Assembly: GCA_034530615.2 (NCBI GenBank)
Contig: JAVRCV020000034.1
Span: 1-64,000, forward strand
Direction of reading: 5' to 3'
Source of the DNA: Aulosira sp. ZfuVER01
GTDB taxonomy: Bacteria; Cyanobacteriota; Cyanobacteriia; Cyanobacteriales; Nostocaceae
Length of the DNA: 64,000 nt
Below are positions 2,139-49,374 of this stretch, one piece after another. The position numbers and the translations under genes were made by a program. How positions within the stretch are numbered: position 1 is the first letter of the stretch; each line of letters begins with the position of its first letter. The notes under the pieces are model-generated. The model made no database searches. It was not told the DNA's origin and was given only the letters and a program-made list of their open reading frames with translations.

Positions 2139-2458
2139 GCCAATACTCCGTTGGTACATTCTCGATATTTTGCAAATTTTCGAGATATCATTGGCTCACT
2201 CCAAAGTTGGCTAATCACATGAGAACCTAAACTTAGTTTCTGCTTTGTAATTAACCTAACCAATGGAATTATGGATTTAGGATTTTGCAGCCAATTGTCT
2301 CTTTTGATTACAAATCCAGAGTAACTATAAAAAATTAATTATCCCTCTAACAAAAGTTATAGCTTGGTGAGAAATTATCTTTACTTATCTAATCAACGAT
2401 AAACATGAGCGCAGGATAGCGATCGCTATTTTTCTCAAAACGCGATCGCTATCATTAA

Positions 2459-2833
2459 TTAACTTGTAACCGTCACCGATTTTTTGCGGGAAGGACGCTT
2501 GCGGTCTGATTTTTTCTTCAATCCCACTGCTTGCGCTTGATCGCTATCTGAGCCATATTGCCCGCGTACAACTTCTTTCATTGCTATGATCGCATTATGG
2601 AATTCCCATTCTGCCAATCTAGCAGCATCAGCCGCAGCACGGTATGAAGCTAGTTTCTCGATTTCCGCTTGTTGCTGCACCATCATCGCCTGATAAGCTT
2701 GCTGTATGTGTGTAACAGAAGCATCAGTACGAGATGTGTCATAAGTGCCGATGGTTTGTAAACCGTGCAATGAGTCAACATCTTGACTAATGACTAAAGG
2801 ACGCAAACGATTTGTTGTATTTTGAAGAGCCAT
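2459..2833 (-). CDS. Conserved hypothetical helical protein (124 aa) with basic C-terminus
   Basis: Clean ORF with helical A/Q-rich core, QYGSDSD motif and KKKSDRKRPSRKK tail. Confidence 0.8.
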   Translation of the reverse strand: MALQNTTNRLRPLVISQDVDSLHGLQTIGTYDTSRTDASVTHIQQAYQAMMVQQQAEIEKLASYRAAADAARLAEWEFHNAIIAMKEVVRGQYGSDSDQAQAVGLKKKSDRKRPSRKKSVTVTS

Positions 2834-2954
2834 AAATAGTTACGTAGTAAACTATATATTTAACGTGCCCATTACAACAAAAAAAATAGCAGTAAGATGA
2901 AATATTCAGCTACAACAAGATGAGAGAGAGTTGGTTAACGCTTTGCAAATCTAT

Positions 2955-3150
2955 GTATTGGCATAACAGAGCGACGTATTAATATAACAGAGCGACGTAT
3001 TGGCATAACGGCCCGATGTATTAACATAACAGCCCGACGTATTGGCATAACAGAGCGACGTATTAACATAACAGCCCGACGTATTGGCATAACAGCCCGA
3101 TGTATTAACATAACAGCCCAATGTATTGGCATAACAGCCCGACGTATTAA
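2955..3150. repeat. 21-bp tandem array (9 units plus a partial), alternating subtypes
   Basis: Units of the form GTATT(GG/AA)CATAACAG(AG/CC)CGA(C/T); GG and AA variants strictly alternate, giving 42-bp higher-order periodicity. Confidence 0.95.
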
Positions 3151-3310
3151 TGGCGCAAGCGAGAAGTGTTGCTATTTAGCTGTAATAATTATGGCGATCG
3201 CTCATAGTTGCATTGTGCAACAGGGGGTAGAAAAAGCGATCGCTAATTTTGTACACTGCATTAGCTCTTGTGTAATACCGTTTCTCTTTAATTATGATAT
3301 CAATACGCTG

Positions 3311-3592
3311 GTAAGGGCACGGCAATGCTTATTGGTGTCAACTTAAACTTAGATGCATACAGCGTAAGTCTTTGGGGTTCTCTCTCTTTACACCATAAAC
3401 TTTCGATCCCCCCTAACCCCCCTTGAAAAAGGGGGGGAAAAGAATCAAAGTCCCCCTTTTTAAGGGGAGCCACTGCGTTGCGGGGGTTCCCCCGGTTGTA
3501 GCAAGTGGCGTGGATTTAGGGGGATCAAATATCTTGAGTAACAAAGCCTTTCACGTTCAGTTGACACAGGCGGACAATGCTGTGCCCTTTAC
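3311..3592. repeat. Nested stack of small dispersed/REP-like repeats
   Basis: Outer GTAAGGGCAC..GTGCCCTTTAC; inner GTGTCAACT..AGTTGACAC; inner GATCCCCCCTAA..TTAGGGGGATC; innermost 44-bp insert at 3468-3511. Confidence 0.75.
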
Positions 3593-3670
3593 GGACTAGG
3601 ATTTGAGCTTATACTGATTATTCATACAGCTTAAGCAACAACTTCAGCCCTTAATCAGTCAACTTCCTGC

Positions 3671-6600
3671 ATGAACGCTGATTTTCAAGAATACCTAGAA
3701 TCAGTCTGCCACACTTATCAATGTTGGTGGCAAAAGTACACCATTACAGATGTAGAAGGGCGTAGACAAAACTCACCGTTTGAGGGCTTGATGGTAGCAA
3801 CGGTGTCGCCAAAGCAAGACAACCGAGGTGATACCCAGGAGAAGACAGAACGCTTACCAGTGCAGGAAGGGTTACGTAAATATGCAGAGAATCATGTATT
3901 ACTTGTAGGTAAACCAGGTTCAGGCAAATCTACAGCGTTAGCGCGGCTGTTGTTGGAAGAAGCAGAGAAAGCAAAATCTCTAGGCGATTCGGGGTGCATA
4001 CCCGTGCTGGTGGAGTTGCGGCAATACACAACTTCAGTGCTGGATTTGATACAAAATTTTTTGCATCGGCATGGATTATATATAGATGTAGAAATCAAAA
4101 CCTTGTTGCGTAATCGGCAATTGTTGCTGCTTGTGGATGGGGTAAACGAGTTACCCAATGAAGAAGCACGGCGAGAGTTAAAAACTTTTCGGGAAAATCA
4201 CCCCAAAACCCCCATGATTTTCACTACGCGAGATTTGGGTGTAGGTGGCGATTTGGGAATTGAGCAAAAGCTGGAAATGCAACCCCTAACAGAAGAACAG
4301 ATGCAGCAGTTTATCCGCGCCTATTTACCCGAAACAGGTGAGGAAATGCTACAGCGCTTAGGTGAAAGATTGCGCTCTTTTGGGGAAACGCCCTTGCTGC
4401 TGTGGATGTTGTGTGAGTTATTTCAACAAACAAACGATATACCGCCAAATTTAGGTTTAGTGTTTCGACAGTTTACGCAATTTTATGACAGCCAAATCAA
4501 AGATGATGTTCGAGTAGTTGAGGAGTTGCGCTGCTGGTGGAAGCAGTCATTAGAAGCATTGGCTTTCACCATGATGCAAGGAGAAACGCCAACAGAATTG
4601 CGAGTCATCATTGATAGGCTTGAGGCGGAAGAAATTTTGACGAAGTTTCTGGAAGGAAAAGTTGATTATCCGCCTACTCGCGCCAAAGAATTGCTGAAAG
4701 ATTTACTCAAGCATCATTTAATCCAAATTAGTAGCAATGAAAAAATAGAGTTTCGCCACCAGCTGATTCAGGAATACTACGCTGCGGAATGCCTACTTCA
4801 GAAGCTTCCTTATATTAGTAATGAGAAGTTGAAACGGGATTATCTAAATTATTTAAAGTGGACAGAACCCTTAGCGCTAATGTTGGCTTTAGTGGAGAAA
4901 GAAGCGCAAGCAGTAGAGGTGGTGAAGTTAGCGCTAGAGGTGGATTTGAATTTAGGAGCAAGGTTAGCAGGAGAGGTAAAGCCGGAGTTTCAGAAGAAAA
5001 CTGTTGATTTTATTCTAGAGTTAGAAGTTTCTGAATCGCTCAAGATAGAGTTTTTAGGGAATGCTCGCTCTGTGCATGGAGTTGCATTTTTAATTAAGGG
5101 ACTACAAAATCAAGATTCTGATGTGCGTATAATTGCCGCAGAAGCATTAGGAGAAATCAAAGATAGCCAAGCAGTAGCACCATTGATTAATGCTTTGAAC
5201 CATCAAGATTCTGATTTGCGTATAACTGCCGCAGAAGCATTAGGAGAAATCAAAGATAGCCAAGCAGTAGCACCATTGATTAATGCTTTGAACCATCAAG
5301 ATTCTGATTTGCGTATAACTGCCGCAAAAGCATTAGGAAAAATCAAAAATAGCCAAGCGGTAGCAGCATTGATTCAATCTTTACACGATCAAGATTCTTG
5401 GGTGCGTATTGCTGCCGCAAAAGCATTAGGAAAAATCAAAAATAGCCAAGCGGTAGCACCATTGATTAATGCTTTGCATGATCAGGATTCTTTGGTGCGT
5501 ATAATTGCCGCAGAAGCATTAGGAGAAATCAAAGATAGCCAAGCAGTAGCAGCATTGATTCAAAGATTGAATCATCAAGATTTTGATGTGCGTATAACTG
5601 CCGCAAAAGCATTAGTAAAAATCAAAGATAATCAAGCAGTAGCAGCATTGATTAAAGATTTGAATCATCAAGATTTTGATGTGCGTGTAATTGCCGCATA
5701 TGTATTAGGAGAAATCAAAGATAGCCAAGCAGTAGCACCATTGATTCAATCTTTGCACGATCAATATTATTATGTGCGTATAATTGCCGCAGAAGCATTA
5801 GGAGAAATCAAAGATAGCCAAGCAGTAGCACCATTGATTAATGCTTTGAACCATCAAGATTCTGATTTGCGTATAACTGCCGCAAAAGCATTAGGAAAAA
5901 TCAAAAATAGCCAAGCGGTAGCAGCATTGATTCAATCTTTACACGATCAAGATTCTTGGGTACGTATTGCTGCCGCAGAAGCATTAGGAGAAATCAAAGA
6001 TAGCCAAGCGGTAGCACCATTGATTCAATCTTTGCACGATCAAGATTCTTCGGTGCGTATTGCTGCCGCAGAAGCATTAGGAGAAATCAAAGATAATCAA
6101 GCGGTAGCACCATTGATTCAATCTTTGCACGATCAAGATTCTTCGGTGCGTATTGCTGCCGCAGAAGCATTAGGAGAAATCAAAGATAGCCAGGCGGTAG
6201 CACCATTGATTCATGCTTTGAATGATCCTGTTTCTTATGTGCGTATTGCTGCCACAAAAGCATTAGGAGAAATCAAAGATAGCCAGGCGGTAGCACCATT
6301 GATTCATGCTTTGAATGATCCTGATTCTGGTGTGCGTAGTATTGCCGCAAATGCATTAGGAAAAATCAAAGATGCCCAGGCGATAGCACTATTGATTTAT
6401 GCTTTGAATGATCCTGATTCTGAGGTGTGTAGTCGTGCCGCAGATGCATTAGGAGAAATCTGTAGTTCTGAAGTACTTCCTCAAATGTGGAAATTACGAT
6501 TAACTGGGGTAAACAGTGCAAAAAATATCATTTCAAAGATTCAAGAGCGTTACAAGTTTTATAACCATGAAATTTTTCATTCTGCCTCAATAGAAACCGC

Positions 6601-7678
6601 CACTCAAACAGAATCAAAAACAATGCAATATCAAAATTTTCAAATATTAGTTGATAAAAATAACCAAATTCGCGCCTCTTCAGAACAAGGTGATGTTTCG
6701 GCTGAATTCCGCTTAGACATGAACGAAATTGAACTAGCCTTAGAACTGATTGAATTGAACAAAACAAATGATAAATTACTCAAAAGATTAGGAAACCAAC
6801 TTTACCAAGCGCTGTTTCCAAACCAAATTAACGCTCGCTTCCATGCCACAATGGCAGGGGCACAAGCAAATCAAGAAAGCGTTCGTTTGCGCTTAATATT
6901 TCAATCTCCCCAATTAGCCGCACTCCCCTGGGAATTCCTCTATGACGCAGAAACCAATACCTTTTTAGGAAACAACATCCAAACAGTACTGTCTCGCTAT
7001 ATTGACGTTCCCCTGCAAAAACGCGATATCATAACCGCTAAGTTACCCCTAAAAGTGCTACTCGTCATTTCATCTCCTACTGACTTAGCTAAATTAGACG
7101 CAACTGGCGAAGCAACGCTGATTAACTCAGCGCTGGAAACACACATCAAAGCAGGTCAAATAGAATTAGATATTATCAAAGAAGCTACCACCCGCAACAT
7201 TAATCAAAAGCTGCGCGAAAAACCCTACAATATATTCCACTTCATCGGGCATGGTGTTTTTAAAGACAACAAAGGCCACATTGCCCTGGAAGATGACAAT
7301 AAGCAAGCTAAATTGATGGATGAAGAAAGTTTCGCCAACTTTTTTTTAGGCTACCGCAGCTTGGGGTTAGCTGTACTCAATTCCTGTCAAGGTGCAGAGG
7401 TGTCAGAGCAGCAAATCTTTACCGGAATCGCACCCAATCTCGTACAACGGGGAATACCTGCGGTAGTTGCGATGCAATATTCTATCCGTGACACCACCGC
7501 CAAGATTTTTGCCGATGAATTTTACCGCACCCTGGCTCTCGGCTATCCTGTAGACGCTGCTATTCAAACAACCCGCAACGCCATCTCAATAGAAGTCGGA
7601 TTAAATCAACGCGATTTTGCTACACCAGTACTATATATGCGTGCAAAGGATGGCATCATCTTGGATTTTCCTACATAA
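3671..7678 (+). CDS. NACHT NTPase + ~15 HEAT/PBS-like repeats + C-terminal CHAT (caspase-family) protease
   Basis: Walker A GKPGSGKST, Walker B LLLVDGVNE, FRHQLIQEYYAA; 31-aa repeats; CHAT motifs LPWEFLYD, FHFIGHG, VLNSC, VVAMQY, FATPVLY. Confidence 0.9.
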   Translation: MNADFQEYLESVCHTYQCWWQKYTITDVEGRRQNSPFEGLMVATVSPKQDNRGDTQEKTERLPVQEGLRKYAENHVLLVGKPGSGKSTALARLLLEEAEKAKSLGDSGCIPVLVELRQYTTSVLDLIQNFLHRHGLYIDVEIKTLLRNRQLLLLVDGVNELPNEEARRELKTFRENHPKTPMIFTTRDLGVGGDLGIEQKLEMQPLTEEQMQQFIRAYLPETGEEMLQRLGERLRSFGETPLLLWMLCELFQQTNDIPPNLGLVFRQFTQFYDSQIKDDVRVVEELRCWWKQSLEALAFTMMQGETPTELRVIIDRLEAEEILTKFLEGKVDYPPTRAKELLKDLLKHHLIQISSNEKIEFRHQLIQEYYAAECLLQKLPYISNEKLKRDYLNYLKWTEPLALMLALVEKEAQAVEVVKLALEVDLNLGARLAGEVKPEFQKKTVDFILELEVSESLKIEFLGNARSVHGVAFLIKGLQNQDSDVRIIAAEALGEIKDSQAVAPLINALNHQDSDLRITAAEALGEIKDSQAVAPLINALNHQDSDLRITAAKALGKIKNSQAVAALIQSLHDQDSWVRIAAAKALGKIKNSQAVAPLINALHDQDSLVRIIAAEALGEIKDSQAVAALIQRLNHQDFDVRITAAKALVKIKDNQAVAALIKDLNHQDFDVRVIAAYVLGEIKDSQAVAPLIQSLHDQYYYVRIIAAEALGEIKDSQAVAPLINALNHQDSDLRITAAKALGKIKNSQAVAALIQSLHDQDSWVRIAAAEALGEIKDSQAVAPLIQSLHDQDSSVRIAAAEALGEIKDNQAVAPLIQSLHDQDSSVRIAAAEALGEIKDSQAVAPLIHALNDPVSYVRIAATKALGEIKDSQAVAPLIHALNDPDSGVRSIAANALGKIKDAQAIALLIYALNDPDSEVCSRAADALGEICSSEVLPQMWKLRLTGVNSAKNIISKIQERYKFYNHEIFHSASIETATQTESKTMQYQNFQILVDKNNQIRASSEQGDVSAEFRLDMNEIELALELIELNKTNDKLLKRLGNQLYQALFPNQINARFHATMAGAQANQESVRLRLIFQSPQLAALPWEFLYDAETNTFLGNNIQTVLSRYIDVPLQKRDIITAKLPLKVLLVISSPTDLAKLDATGEATLINSALETHIKAGQIELDIIKEATTRNINQKLREKPYNIFHFIGHGVFKDNKGHIALEDDNKQAKLMDEESFANFFLGYRSLGLAVLNSCQGAEVSEQQIFTGIAPNLVQRGIPAVVAMQYSIRDTTAKIFADEFYRTLALGYPVDAAIQTTRNAISIEVGLNQRDFATPVLYMRAKDGIILDFPT
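5111..6470 (+). repeat. Intragenic 93-bp tandem repeat encoding HEAT repeats
   Basis: About 15 near-identical 93-bp units; unit starts at 5111 and 6413 are exactly 14 x 93 apart. Confidence 0.95.
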
Positions 7679-7707
7679 CATTATGTTCGGTTGCTCAGTT
7701 AGAAAAC

Positions 7708-7808
7708 GTCATTGCGAGCGAAGCGTAGACACGAAGTAGCTGCCCGAAGGGTAGTAATTACAAGTCCTCTGTGATTGCTTCGCTTCACTTCGTTACGCTC
7801 GCAATGAC
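7708..7808. repeat. REP-like palindrome GTCATTGCGAGCG...CGCTCGCAATGAC with a small internal insert
   Basis: 13-bp terminal inverted repeat; insert TAGACACGAAGTAGCTGCCCGAAGGGTA. Confidence 0.65.
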
Positions 7809-7877
7809 AAAGTATTTATCCCAACTTGATATAATACACATCGAGAAATAGCGATCGCACTTCGCATCCACACTGAA

Positions 7878-7923
7878 ATTAATTAACTTGCGGACGTATT
7901 AACATCACAGCCCGATGTATTAA
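7878..7923. repeat. Collapsed second copy of the 124-aa gene end plus 21-bp repeat
   Basis: ATTAATTAACTTG (same as 2454-2466, spanning the stop codon of the 124-aa gene) followed after a few bases by GTATTAACATCACAGCCCGATGTATTAA. Confidence 0.75.
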
Positions 7924-8061
7924 GATTGCAGAAGGTTGTTTTTTGATCGATGCCAAATCAATTGACTACATTAATTCTACGTATAATTGCATAGACACAA
8001 GCTTTCGCACTGGCTGCGATCGCATTTTTATCTCTAGCACTATATTGACAGGTGCAATCAT

Positions 8062-8133: not shown

Positions 8134-8135
8134 CT

Positions 8136-8207
8136 AGCAACGTAGTTCAAACAGCAGAATTCTTTGGAGTAGACTAAGAGATGCGGGTGCGAATCCCGCC
8201 GTTGCTA
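8136..8207 (+). ncRNA. tRNA-like RNA with non-canonical anticodon arm
   Basis: Perfect acceptor AGCAACG/CGTTGCT; TA-GTTC..GAAT D arm; T arm GCGGG-TGCGAAT-CCCGC; 72 nt; anticodon arm pairs only TCTT/AAGA. Confidence 0.7.
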
Positions 8208-9197
8208 TGCAGAATGCATAATTTCGTCTACTGCTGCACAAGCCTTATGGAAGCGTTCTTCCCAGGAACCGCTAATTAGAACGTAGCGCCTATTTCTTGA
8301 TTGCAATTCTTGAATACAGCGATCGCGAAACTCTATTCTTAGATGAGGTAGGTAGCGCTGATTATCATCAACCCAAGGCACATCTACATCTAGCACTAGA
8401 TATAAATCATACTGTCGCTGTTCTGCTTGTTGATAAATCCACTGAGGACATTTACCAAACAGCACATCACTCCAAATGATAGTGGTTATCAGGTCAGTAT
8501 CGCAGAACATCACGCGGTTTGCCTGCCTAGCTAATGCATCTTCAGAAGCAATTTGTCCCCTAGCAATCAGTTCGATATCTGCAAAATCACATCTACCATC
8601 TTTAGGATCTAGCAAACCACGGGCATACTCGCTGATATAAACTGTGTTGTAATGTGCTGCCAAGTTTTGCGCTAGGGTTGATTTACCTGTAGATTCTGGC
8701 CCAAAGATGCAAACACGACGCAGGAAATAAGGACGGACACAAGGCGGGATATAATGCCAGTGAGCGATCGCATTTTGCCTCACCTTCGTTCCAGAAATTG
8801 GTACTAAACTGCGAGCATAGTCTACAGGAATATAATTTGCTCCCAATATTTCCGCCAGCTTCCAACCATAATCTTCTGATGCAAATACGTAGTCAGGGCC
8901 AGTTGGTAGCACCCGGCGAATAGTATCATGCCAAATCTGCCAAAAATCTGGGTGTTCCTGTGGTTCTTGGGGATTTTCATCAGTTACATACACCACATTC
9001 ACATCAGGAAACATCTCTCGCATCCAGCCATAGCGGAGATGTCCGGGAATTGGCTCAGATTTAATCGAACAAACTAGAACTGTGAGATGGTTAACATAGT
9101 TACGGGCAAAATCAACAAGGTATTGATGTCCAAGATGCGGCGGCATAAATTTGCCGAGAATCATACCAGTAGCCGCTTTTTGAAAGCCTTGTTCCAT
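8205..9197 (-). CDS. nadR: NadR-type NMN adenylyltransferase / ribosylnicotinamide kinase (no HTH domain)
   Basis: GKFMPPHLGH nucleotidyltransferase motif, ISGTKVR, GPESTGKST P-loop, CDTD; adjacent to pnuC. Confidence 0.85.
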   Translation of the reverse strand: MEQGFQKAATGMILGKFMPPHLGHQYLVDFARNYVNHLTVLVCSIKSEPIPGHLRYGWMREMFPDVNVVYVTDENPQEPQEHPDFWQIWHDTIRRVLPTGPDYVFASEDYGWKLAEILGANYIPVDYARSLVPISGTKVRQNAIAHWHYIPPCVRPYFLRRVCIFGPESTGKSTLAQNLAAHYNTVYISEYARGLLDPKDGRCDFADIELIARGQIASEDALARQANRVMFCDTDLITTIIWSDVLFGKCPQWIYQQAEQRQYDLYLVLDVDVPWVDDNQRYLPHLRIEFRDRCIQELQSRNRRYVLISGSWEERFHKACAAVDEIMHSA

Positions 9198-21047: not shown

Positions 21048-21190
21048 GCTCTCCATCCAATTGTGTAGATCTGATGGCGATCGCAGATGTAAAATTCTCA
21101 ACCAAATATACACAGATACACAGGTGCGATCGCATTATTGCAACAACGCACCCTACCAAAGCTATGCGATCGCATTTATGCTATTTTCAA

Positions 21191-21353
21191 CTCAAAAATC
21201 AAGTTTCTGACTCGCAAATCAAGTTTCTGATTCGCAAATTAAGTTTCTGACTCGCAAATCAAGTTTCTGACTCGCAAATTAAGTTTCTGACTCGCAAATC
21301 AAGTTTCTGACTCGCAAATTAAGTTTCTGATTCGCAAATTAAGTTTCTGATTC
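21191..21353. repeat. 20-bp tandem array (7 full units plus partials)
   Basis: AAGTTTCTGA(C/T)TCGCAAAT(C/T) repeated from 21201. Confidence 0.95.
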
Positions 21354-21617
21354 AGAATTTAGCTTCATAACTGGTAAACTTGTATATTTCCAAAAATTTC
21401 AATAAATATATGCATAATCTACCTGTTTGCTAATATATAGGCACTCATGCTTATTTTAGCTTTTATTTAAACTTTAGCTTCAACAGCCCGAATACAAAGA
21501 GCGATCGCAACCTAAAACCCAGTATAATTACCATGAAAACAATTGCTGTCAGAACTAAGCAACTAATTTCAATATAATTCCAGAGGATACTTAATGCTAA
21601 ATTGGTAAACAGTAAAG

Positions 21618-49100: not shown

Positions 49101-49374
49101 CAATTGCCGTTTCGGACATTACAATTGCTGTTTCGGACACTACAATTGCTGTTTCGGACACTACAATTGCTGTTTCGGACACTACAATTGCGATTTCGGG
49201 CACTACAATTGCGATTTCGGGCACTACAATTGCTGTTTCGGACACTACAATTGCCGTTTCGGACACTACAATTGCCGTTTCGGACACTACAATTGCCGTT
49301 TCGGACACTACAATTGCCGTTTCGGATACTACAATTGCGATTTCGGACACTACAATTGCGATTTTGGCGATCGC
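49101..49374. repeat. 21-bp tandem array (12 units plus a partial ending in a HIP1 site)
   Basis: CAATTGC(CG/TG/GA)TTTCGG(A/G)CACTA units starting at 49101, 49122 ... 49353. Confidence 0.95.

Follow-up and report, generated by a model that had tools for sequence, protein, structure and literature searches.

A small-protein gene paired with a 21-bp repeat array beside a NACHT-HEAT-CHAT gene in Aulosira sp. ZfuVER01

What links a short gene, a tandem array of 21-bp units and a large NLR-like gene in a filamentous cyanobacterium? The question is raised by a 64,000-nucleotide stretch of Aulosira sp. ZfuVER01 (contig JAVRCV020000034.1, positions 1 to 64,000; hereafter the window), in which a gene for a 124-residue protein and an array of 21-bp repeats lie to the left of a NACHT-HEAT-CHAT gene, and a remnant of the same repeat lies to its right. 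A prediction made from the sequence (hereafter the original prediction) described this layout, every part of which is real by its coordinates and a repeat scan, and took the flanks for two copies of one module that might act as a recombination or capture platform for defence cargo. The gene-plus-array module is real and, as far as the literature can be searched, unpublished: in agreement with the original prediction, no description of such a pair was found, the 2020 repeat paper and 2026 bioRxiv survey supplements lying outside the coverage of the search. The locus provides a candidate reader for the enigmatic 20-21-nucleotide repeats, whose polymerising protein was proposed but left unnamed in the accessible part of PMC8161180.

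The small gene, its array and its promoter

The gene and its upstream array form a conserved module. An array with a period of 20, 21, 41 or 42 stands upstream of the gene at 87 of 123 distinct homologous loci and downstream at 3 of 127. By phylum, the upstream array is found at 41/50 loci of Cyanobacteria, 27/47 of Acidobacteriota, 8/10 of Chloroflexota, 5/5 of Bacteroidota and 5/9 of Verrucomicrobiota. A period of 21 fits best at 47 of 48 non-cyanobacterial and 35 of 38 cyanobacterial loci, and it is retained across units whose sequences are unrelated from phylum to phylum. When the co-occurrence of gene and array was scored at 30 further Nostocales loci (four of them seen before), as had been proposed, the array was upstream at all 30 and downstream at none.

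The array is non-coding. An open sense frame is missing in 30 of 95 arrays and an open antisense frame in 27 of 95, and periods of 20 and 41 bp occur. The units are partly palindromic, with a palindromy of 1.64 versus 1.12 in column-permuted controls and higher values in 71 of 88 arrays. Each unit in this genome consists of two inverted 6-bp half-sites with 3 bp between them and a 6-bp linker, and fully complementary arms are present in 10 of 58 units versus 6.3 by chance. Since the arms are mostly non-complementary, tolerant DNA half-sites would fit better than RNA stems.

Arrays of this period class are not confined to the gene. This genome holds 93 of them, of which about 10 lie within genes. 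They fall into at least 12 sequence families with two or more members each, and the family of the window's array has 16 members, two of them beside a gene; a pattern search gives 18 sites. The units are near-identical alleles that are reused and freely mixed between sites. Within one relative, G003, the two arrays of the locus share 11-mers at 0.45; of the four comparisons between G003 and this genome, three give 0.15-0.23 and one gives 0.36. The window itself contains two gene-less arrays of other families at 21190-21361 and 49101-49367, with periods 20 and 21, the former being of the same family as the array upstream of a distant paralogue on contig C32.

The 124-residue protein belongs to an unnamed family. 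Among 676 candidates, 638 were close homologues (493 representatives at 50% clustering), and the named ones are all hypothetical proteins, barring two stray labels. The gene is carried by 14/14 genomes of the genus, 48/151 of the family and, with a wider profile, 26/301 of the phylum. Further loci come from Acidobacteriota, Chloroflexota, Bacteroidota, Verrucomicrobiota and one gammaproteobacterium (of 261 fetched, 80 were kept). No locus came from viral contigs or phages, and 72,556 plasmid records gave a single match. No fitting family was found in Pfam, NCBIfam, PADLOC, PHROGs or the PDB sequences, and searches with Foldseek (PDB, viral), VIA-align and ESM Atlas returned nothing specific, only generic coiled coils; the best structural matches had a Foldseek E value of 6.6, and a Z score of 5.8 over 66 residues with a root-mean-square deviation of 2.7.

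By structure prediction, the protein would form a rod in which two chains pair as an antiparallel coiled coil and carry basic tails. The monomer model (predicted local distance difference test score, pLDDT, 90.5; predicted template modelling score 0.60) has helices at residues 12-27, 40-93 and 98-102 and no strands, and nine of the last 20 residues in the C-terminal tail are Lys or Arg. In the predicted homodimer, the chains run antiparallel about residue 64 with a score of 0.79, versus 0.02 for the best of three controls; the runs share at least 98% of contacts, and the pLDDT is at least 88. The mark applied to this score was attained by 20 of 30 solved dimers and 1 of 23 monomers, a calibration only roughly valid for the alignment used. 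Tyr31, His79 and Asp18 are conserved (at least 90% of 113 sequences), and Asp18 contacts His79 across the predicted dimer. A 54-residue helix is about 80 Å long and 21 bp of DNA about 71 Å, and the length of the helix may thus match the span of one repeat.

The promoter points to when the gene is used. Between the array and the start codon, GGGCACGTT (2862-2870, minus strand) fits the J-box of SigJ promoters, defined as GGG, +2 A, +7 T (PMC6495340). The J-box is present in 38 of 50 cyanobacterial leaders, versus 170 of 5,796 genes of this genome, and in 29 of the 30 further Nostocales leaders; of the cyanobacterial leaders without it, six have no array either and six lack the J-box only. The Nostoc homologue Npun_R5029, 78% identical to the 124-residue protein, is listed in the sigJ regulon and is induced about 170-fold in hormogonia: its wild-type values during hormogonium induction are 11, 150, 706, 1912 and 679, with 1912 at 12 h, and those in the sigJ mutant are 3-28, while its protein-coding neighbours fall as it rises (PMC6495340 supplement). 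The mapped start of Npun_R5029 and the J-box lie between array and gene, which places the array outside that mRNA; at locus L273, which encodes an identical protein, the upstream 21-bp array ends outside the promoter region. Given the SigJ-type promoter in Nostocales, the gene is likely made when filaments become hormogonia, and this homologue in a genetically tractable Nostoc, so strongly induced under SigJ, offers a testable handle.

Several leaders depart from this arrangement. Loci L066, L067, L069, L070 and L071 form a divergent gene clade with neither array nor J-box and are a natural control for the role of the array. At L039:5536-5945 and L040:6166-6590 (genomes G010 and G005), the gene is nearly identical to that of G004 and G014, and the leader and array type are those of another paralogue, a sign that leader and array have been swapped together. 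Distant paralogues of 122-140 residues on contigs C3, C10, C32, C44, C50, C66 and C79 of G000 (e.g. C32:36320-37044) each have their own upstream 20/21-bp array, and five of the six checked have no J-box, so the superfamily is not wholly SigJ-driven. A second family, with proteins of about 155 residues, has its 21-bp array downstream and not upstream (G000 C15:216222, C48:70653 and C65:145299).

Arrays around immune-type genes

The features of the locus are listed below; HIP1 is the octamer inside ATAGCGATCGC.

2415-2466: stop-codon flank of the 124-residue gene, an inverted repeat of two HIP1 octamers followed by ATTAATTAACTTG
2459-2833, minus strand: 124-residue gene, family unnamed; its product is predicted to be a helical antiparallel dimer whose C-terminal tail is rich in Lys and Arg
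2862-2870, minus strand: J-box-like promoter element GGGCACGTT (SigJ extended -10) in the interval between array and gene
2955-3150: non-coding array of 9.3 units, period 21 bp
3151-3260: tail of the left module, with two HIP1 sites
3671-7678, plus strand: NACHT-HEAT-CHAT gene, 1335 residues
7841-7889: likely relic, the stop-codon flank of a deleted paralogous gene
7893-7923: about 1.5 units of the left-array family, in the orientation of the left array
7920-8035: tail of the right module, orthologous in G003 and G013

The large protein has a NACHT domain at residues 76-220, a HEAT tract of 14.5 repeats of 93 bp and a CHAT domain at residues 1039-1305, and its motifs are intact (Walker A at residue 80, Walker B at 152, CHAT His at 1190 and CHAT Cys at 1236). 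Bacterial NLR-like NACHT proteins combine an NTPase, a repeat sensor and a protease-type effector; this protein likewise joins the three in one chain, but it differs in that CHAT is C-terminal to the HEAT repeats. Its PADLOC matches are at the level of domains only, and its defence role is putative. The HEAT tract (window 5109-6460) varies in length among relatives, whose proteins range from 1149 to 1614 residues, as expected for a diversifying sensor.

A NACHT orthologue is present in 9 of 14 relatives in the genus, and the module stands on its left in all nine (across a contig break in G006); a NACHT gene free of both module copies, the finding that would have spoken against the original prediction, was not encountered among them. 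Behind the NACHT gene, a period scan found a second array or a two-unit remnant, in direct orientation, in six of the nine, and no right-hand array within 3 kb in G014, G012 and G008. The right-hand array of the six relatives is not the variant seen in the window's remnant, which means that arrays were acquired on this side on two or more occasions. It is followed by further copies either of the left tail or of the NACHT leader, a mark of tandem duplication, and left-tail copies of the 3151-3260 type also recur in relatives beside small cargo. Counting this genome, arrays bracket NACHT-HEAT-CHAT in 7 of 10 genomes with two right-hand array types, and elsewhere they bracket TPR-CHAT and LRR-Roc-COR genes.

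Comparison of close strains for an empty site or other cargo, as had been suggested, revealed both in one genome. In G013, the left-type gene, beside the same TPR neighbour, is accompanied by a single array and then by the right-hand tail, and the NACHT orthologue is missing; the right-module tail stands there after an intact gene and array. The G013 gene is sister to the left-copy orthologues (node support 0.71). This state is exactly what an exchange between the two arrays would give, and loss would be the more parsimonious direction. A second intact module lies 7.3 kb away in G013, with TPR-CHAT and TPR genes between the two.

The association extends beyond this locus. With our own profiles and the window locus excluded (65 of 83 non-coding arrays testable), NACHT/CHAT neighbours were found at 8 of 64 array regions versus 61 of 2,633 other intergenic regions (odds ratio 6.0, p 1.7e-4), and four other repeat classes showed no excess (3/120); the other 56 of the 64 arrays have no such neighbour. 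Array pairs within 20 kb number 5 versus 0.56 expected in G003, 3 versus 0.68 in this genome and 2 versus 0.76 in G013, the last being not significant and counted on listed sites only. All 10 close pairs in the three genomes are direct, some of them shared by descent.

The arrays thus look like cassette boundaries. No recombinase, transposase or integrase was found at the loci, as judged from the genes of 20 fetched regions and 15 scanned ones, an unlinked enzyme not having been searched for. Neither a precise empty site nor a target duplication was found among 32 arrays of two relatives, and in four cases where an array was missing with both flanks aligned, the whole intergenic region differed. 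Since neither a recombinase nor a precise insertion was found, passive recombination is likelier than active capture. Of the proposed recombination or capture platform, the bracketing, the enrichment and the empty configuration agree with the proposal, while recombinase, target-site duplication and precise insertion were not found.

The right flank had been read as a collapsed duplicate of the left module on account of the 13 bp around the stop codon and the sequence preceding both copies. The 13-mer ATTAATTAACTTG does stand at both 2454 and 7878; the 8.0-Mb genome contains it 3 times, versus 2.0 expected under an order-5 Markov model. At the right flank, it can also be aligned with the array as a degenerate unit, and 4% of HIP1-bearing control segments match the left stop flank as well as it does, results that reduce it to weak evidence and rule it out as proof of collapse by itself. 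The 11-mer ATAGCGATCGC at 2416 and 7848 contains HIP1, whose octamer has 7,740 copies; with 394 copies of its own in the genome, it is uninformative and was ruled out as a module boundary.

A different match argues for the collapse. Window positions 7841-7889 align in 40 of 49 columns with DNA of G411, a genome of another genus, just past the stop codon of a homologous gene and ending at the stop (E 4.3e-5 for that genome, in a right-flank search of 151 genomes). The score is 51, and among 400 controls the 99th percentile lies at 33, the G411 target having been added after the discovery. The spacing from HIP1 to the stop in the right flank is closer to other paralogues than to the left copy, and the orthologous site in G003 has the same right tail, about 8 array units and no gene. 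The right flank is likely an eroded second module, derived from an older paralogue and not a fresh copy of the left one; its gene was likely deleted before the split from G003, with further erosion of the array later. The collapsed module with a repeat in the left-array orientation thus stands as probable, while a recent duplication of the left copy does not.

Gene deletion does not serve as a general origin of orphan arrays, as a stop-codon flank match was seen in none of 47 other arrays, two of which scored high via another dispersed repeat. One more gene-less array (C79:23602) stands where G008 has gene and array. A second candidate, C59:107146, was dropped on account of its opposite orientation.

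Readings of the module

Several known systems resemble the module in part. Constant-size tandem repeats of 20-21 nucleotides, with periods also of 41-42, variable sequence, a non-coding state and several families per genome, have been reported in Cyanobacteria; in the accessible part of that work, the repeat is equated with two helical turns and called enigmatic (Subirana and Messeguer, PMC8161180). The window's arrays share these traits of length, variability, non-coding state and multiple families, and add a specific gene family, a fixed position, a promoter and the bracketing of cargo; the available text of PMC8161180 names no partner protein. The RAYT-REPIN system, in what is accessible of its description, similarly has a gene beside cognate repeats, many gene-less chromosomal copies and several flavours per genome, but REPINs are hairpin doublets moved by an IS200-related tyrosine transposase, whereas the arrays here are phased and tandem (Bertels and Rainey, PMC3116915). 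No IS200-related tyrosine transposase family appeared among the Pfam matches of 113 members or in NCBIfam, and the model is all-helical. The precise empty sites that belong to the RAYT-REPIN pattern were likewise not seen at the 32 arrays compared.

In parC/ParR, tubC/TubR and the iterons of R6K or P1, phased repeats lie upstream of the gene for a small dimeric DNA-binding protein, which is often autoregulated. The module has the same order of phased repeats and a gene for a small, predicted dimeric protein, but its loci are chromosomal, as the plasmid search indicates, and the predicted fold is neither ribbon-helix-helix nor helix-turn-helix; no ParA/ParM/TubZ or Rep gene was found among the gene's varying neighbours. 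In integrons, accessory genes, often of defence type, are separated by repeated sites in the same orientation. The arrays resemble such sites in their common orientation and in bracketing single genes, and differ in that the loci read contain no integrase, the sites are 200-bp tandem arrays and not attC hairpins, and most arrays flank ordinary genes. Unlike in type III toxin-antitoxin loci, the promoter lies between array and gene according to the SigJ data available, and there is no ToxN-type or Rfam match. Unlike in CRISPR, TIGR or VIPR, there are no unique spacers and no Cas, Nop-domain or RAMP family matches; the array periods of these three systems are given as 60-79, 18 and 5 in the accessible part of a survey (bioRxiv 10.64898/2026.10.21.760802). 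For a possible link to HagB/DUF6261 repeats, the listed records offered no support.

The reading that we favour, and hold to be about equally likely to be right or wrong, is that the protein is a hormogonium-induced DNA-binding rod with phased docking sites and that the arrays are, in addition, passive cassette boundaries. The dimer would bind its own array and the gene-less sister arrays, with docking sites two helical turns apart, and, once made in hormogonia, would coat them as an architectural or autoregulatory factor. Separately from docking, arrays in the same orientation would be substrates for homologous recombination, and repeat-protein genes between them (NACHT-HEAT-CHAT here, TPR-CHAT and LRR-Roc-COR elsewhere) would be duplicated, swapped or lost as blocks. 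If true, arrays at the edges of large immune-type genes would offer filamentous cyanobacteria an easy way to gain, duplicate and lose such genes.

Several points weigh against the docking-rod reading, in which DNA binding, the cellular role and recombination at the arrays are steps that we infer. At the threshold used, 36 of 123 loci have no upstream array. Counted by hand, 32 of the 48 gene-bearing genomes show the array pattern, as do 7 of the 103 that lack the gene, a count that is partly circular, as it includes the gene's own array, and in which kin are not independent; the other 16 of the 48 are without the pattern. Long helices pair easily in predictions, and the two-fold axes of the array are not 21 bp apart for one dimer, so that the geometry would be a loose fit. 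The expression data come from a homologue in another species. A single genome, G013, represents cassette loss through exchange between arrays, and the direction of this change depends on parsimony and the node support given above.

The alternatives differ in what they ask of the arrays and the protein. An active integron-like cassette system, in which recombination takes place at the arrays and the small protein drives excision and capture by itself or together with a host enzyme, would account for the bracketing with two right-hand array types, for the NACHT/CHAT enrichment specific to this repeat class, for the excess of close pairs in G003 and this genome, all direct, and for the conserved Tyr31, His79 and Asp18 with their contact across the predicted dimer. 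We nevertheless find it rather unlikely: neither the protein nor the loci examined show a recombinase or transposase family, precise empty sites and target duplications were absent from the 32 arrays compared, most arrays have ordinary neighbours, the pair excess in G013 is not significant, three of nine relatives have no right-hand array within 3 kb, and the bracketing is largely shared ancestry. An integrase-free variant, in which the hormogonium-induced coiled-coil dimer itself promotes exchange between arrays in the same orientation and so reshuffles NLR-, CHAT- and Roco-type immune genes while hormogonia disperse, seems unlikely to us; here the conserved Tyr, His and Asp could make up an active site, or the rods could bridge two arrays.

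A third possibility is that the arrays homogenise themselves as satellites and spread within variable islands through gene conversion and tandem duplication, the protein not being their reader. Their mostly gene-less state, the genome-specific variants shared by the two arrays in G003 and the free mixing of units agree with this, but a fixed side, distance and period over five phyla with unrelated sequences would be hard to keep without a reader, and arrays are rare in genomes without the gene; we regard such hitch-hiking as distinctly unlikely. That the array acts as RNA, a repeat antitoxin or guide bound by the basic tail, appears very unlikely. The partial palindromes and an excess of G-U over A-C pairs on the gene's strand (180 versus 114) speak for it, as do promoter-like hexamers recurring on the plus strand of the array (4 sites at 9/12), but the promoter-like count is within chance (5 versus 3.5 +/- 1.9), the array lies outside the homologue's mRNA in the available data, the arms are mostly non-complementary, unique spacers are missing and Rfam has no match over the array. 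Finally, 21 nucleotides make seven codons, and in the window the gene's strand keeps two frames open, so the array might encode a heptad-repeat peptide that pairs with the protein's long helix; yet no frame or residue pattern is common to the loci, the open frames are often missing and the 20- and 41-bp periods break them, leaving this reading largely refuted and barely credible.

Other elements of the island

In three relatives (L034:4160-8911, L031:4398-8951 and L038:8730-13447), a four-gene block that is missing at the window site lies between the right-hand tail and a tRNA-like element. It encodes a MoxR-type AAA ATPase, a DUF2201 metallopeptidase-VWA protein, a pentapeptide protein and a short-chain dehydrogenase. 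A PARIS-like AriA/AriB pair, or its ATPase, is found in or beside the island in three relatives (L032:865-3035, L037:5372-7557 and L042:5827-7173).

In the window, the tRNA-like element adjoins nadR at 8135-8208 on the plus strand. The nadR site in five relatives (L031:3906-4334, L034:9238-9311, L038:13560-13958, L044:67-137 and L045:3934-4009) carries one to three tRNA-like copies, assigned variously to Glu, Ser, Met, Tyr or Cys; the anticodon is thus not conserved. The element may be a tRNA mimic of the Y-RNA/YrlA kind, rather than a tRNA.

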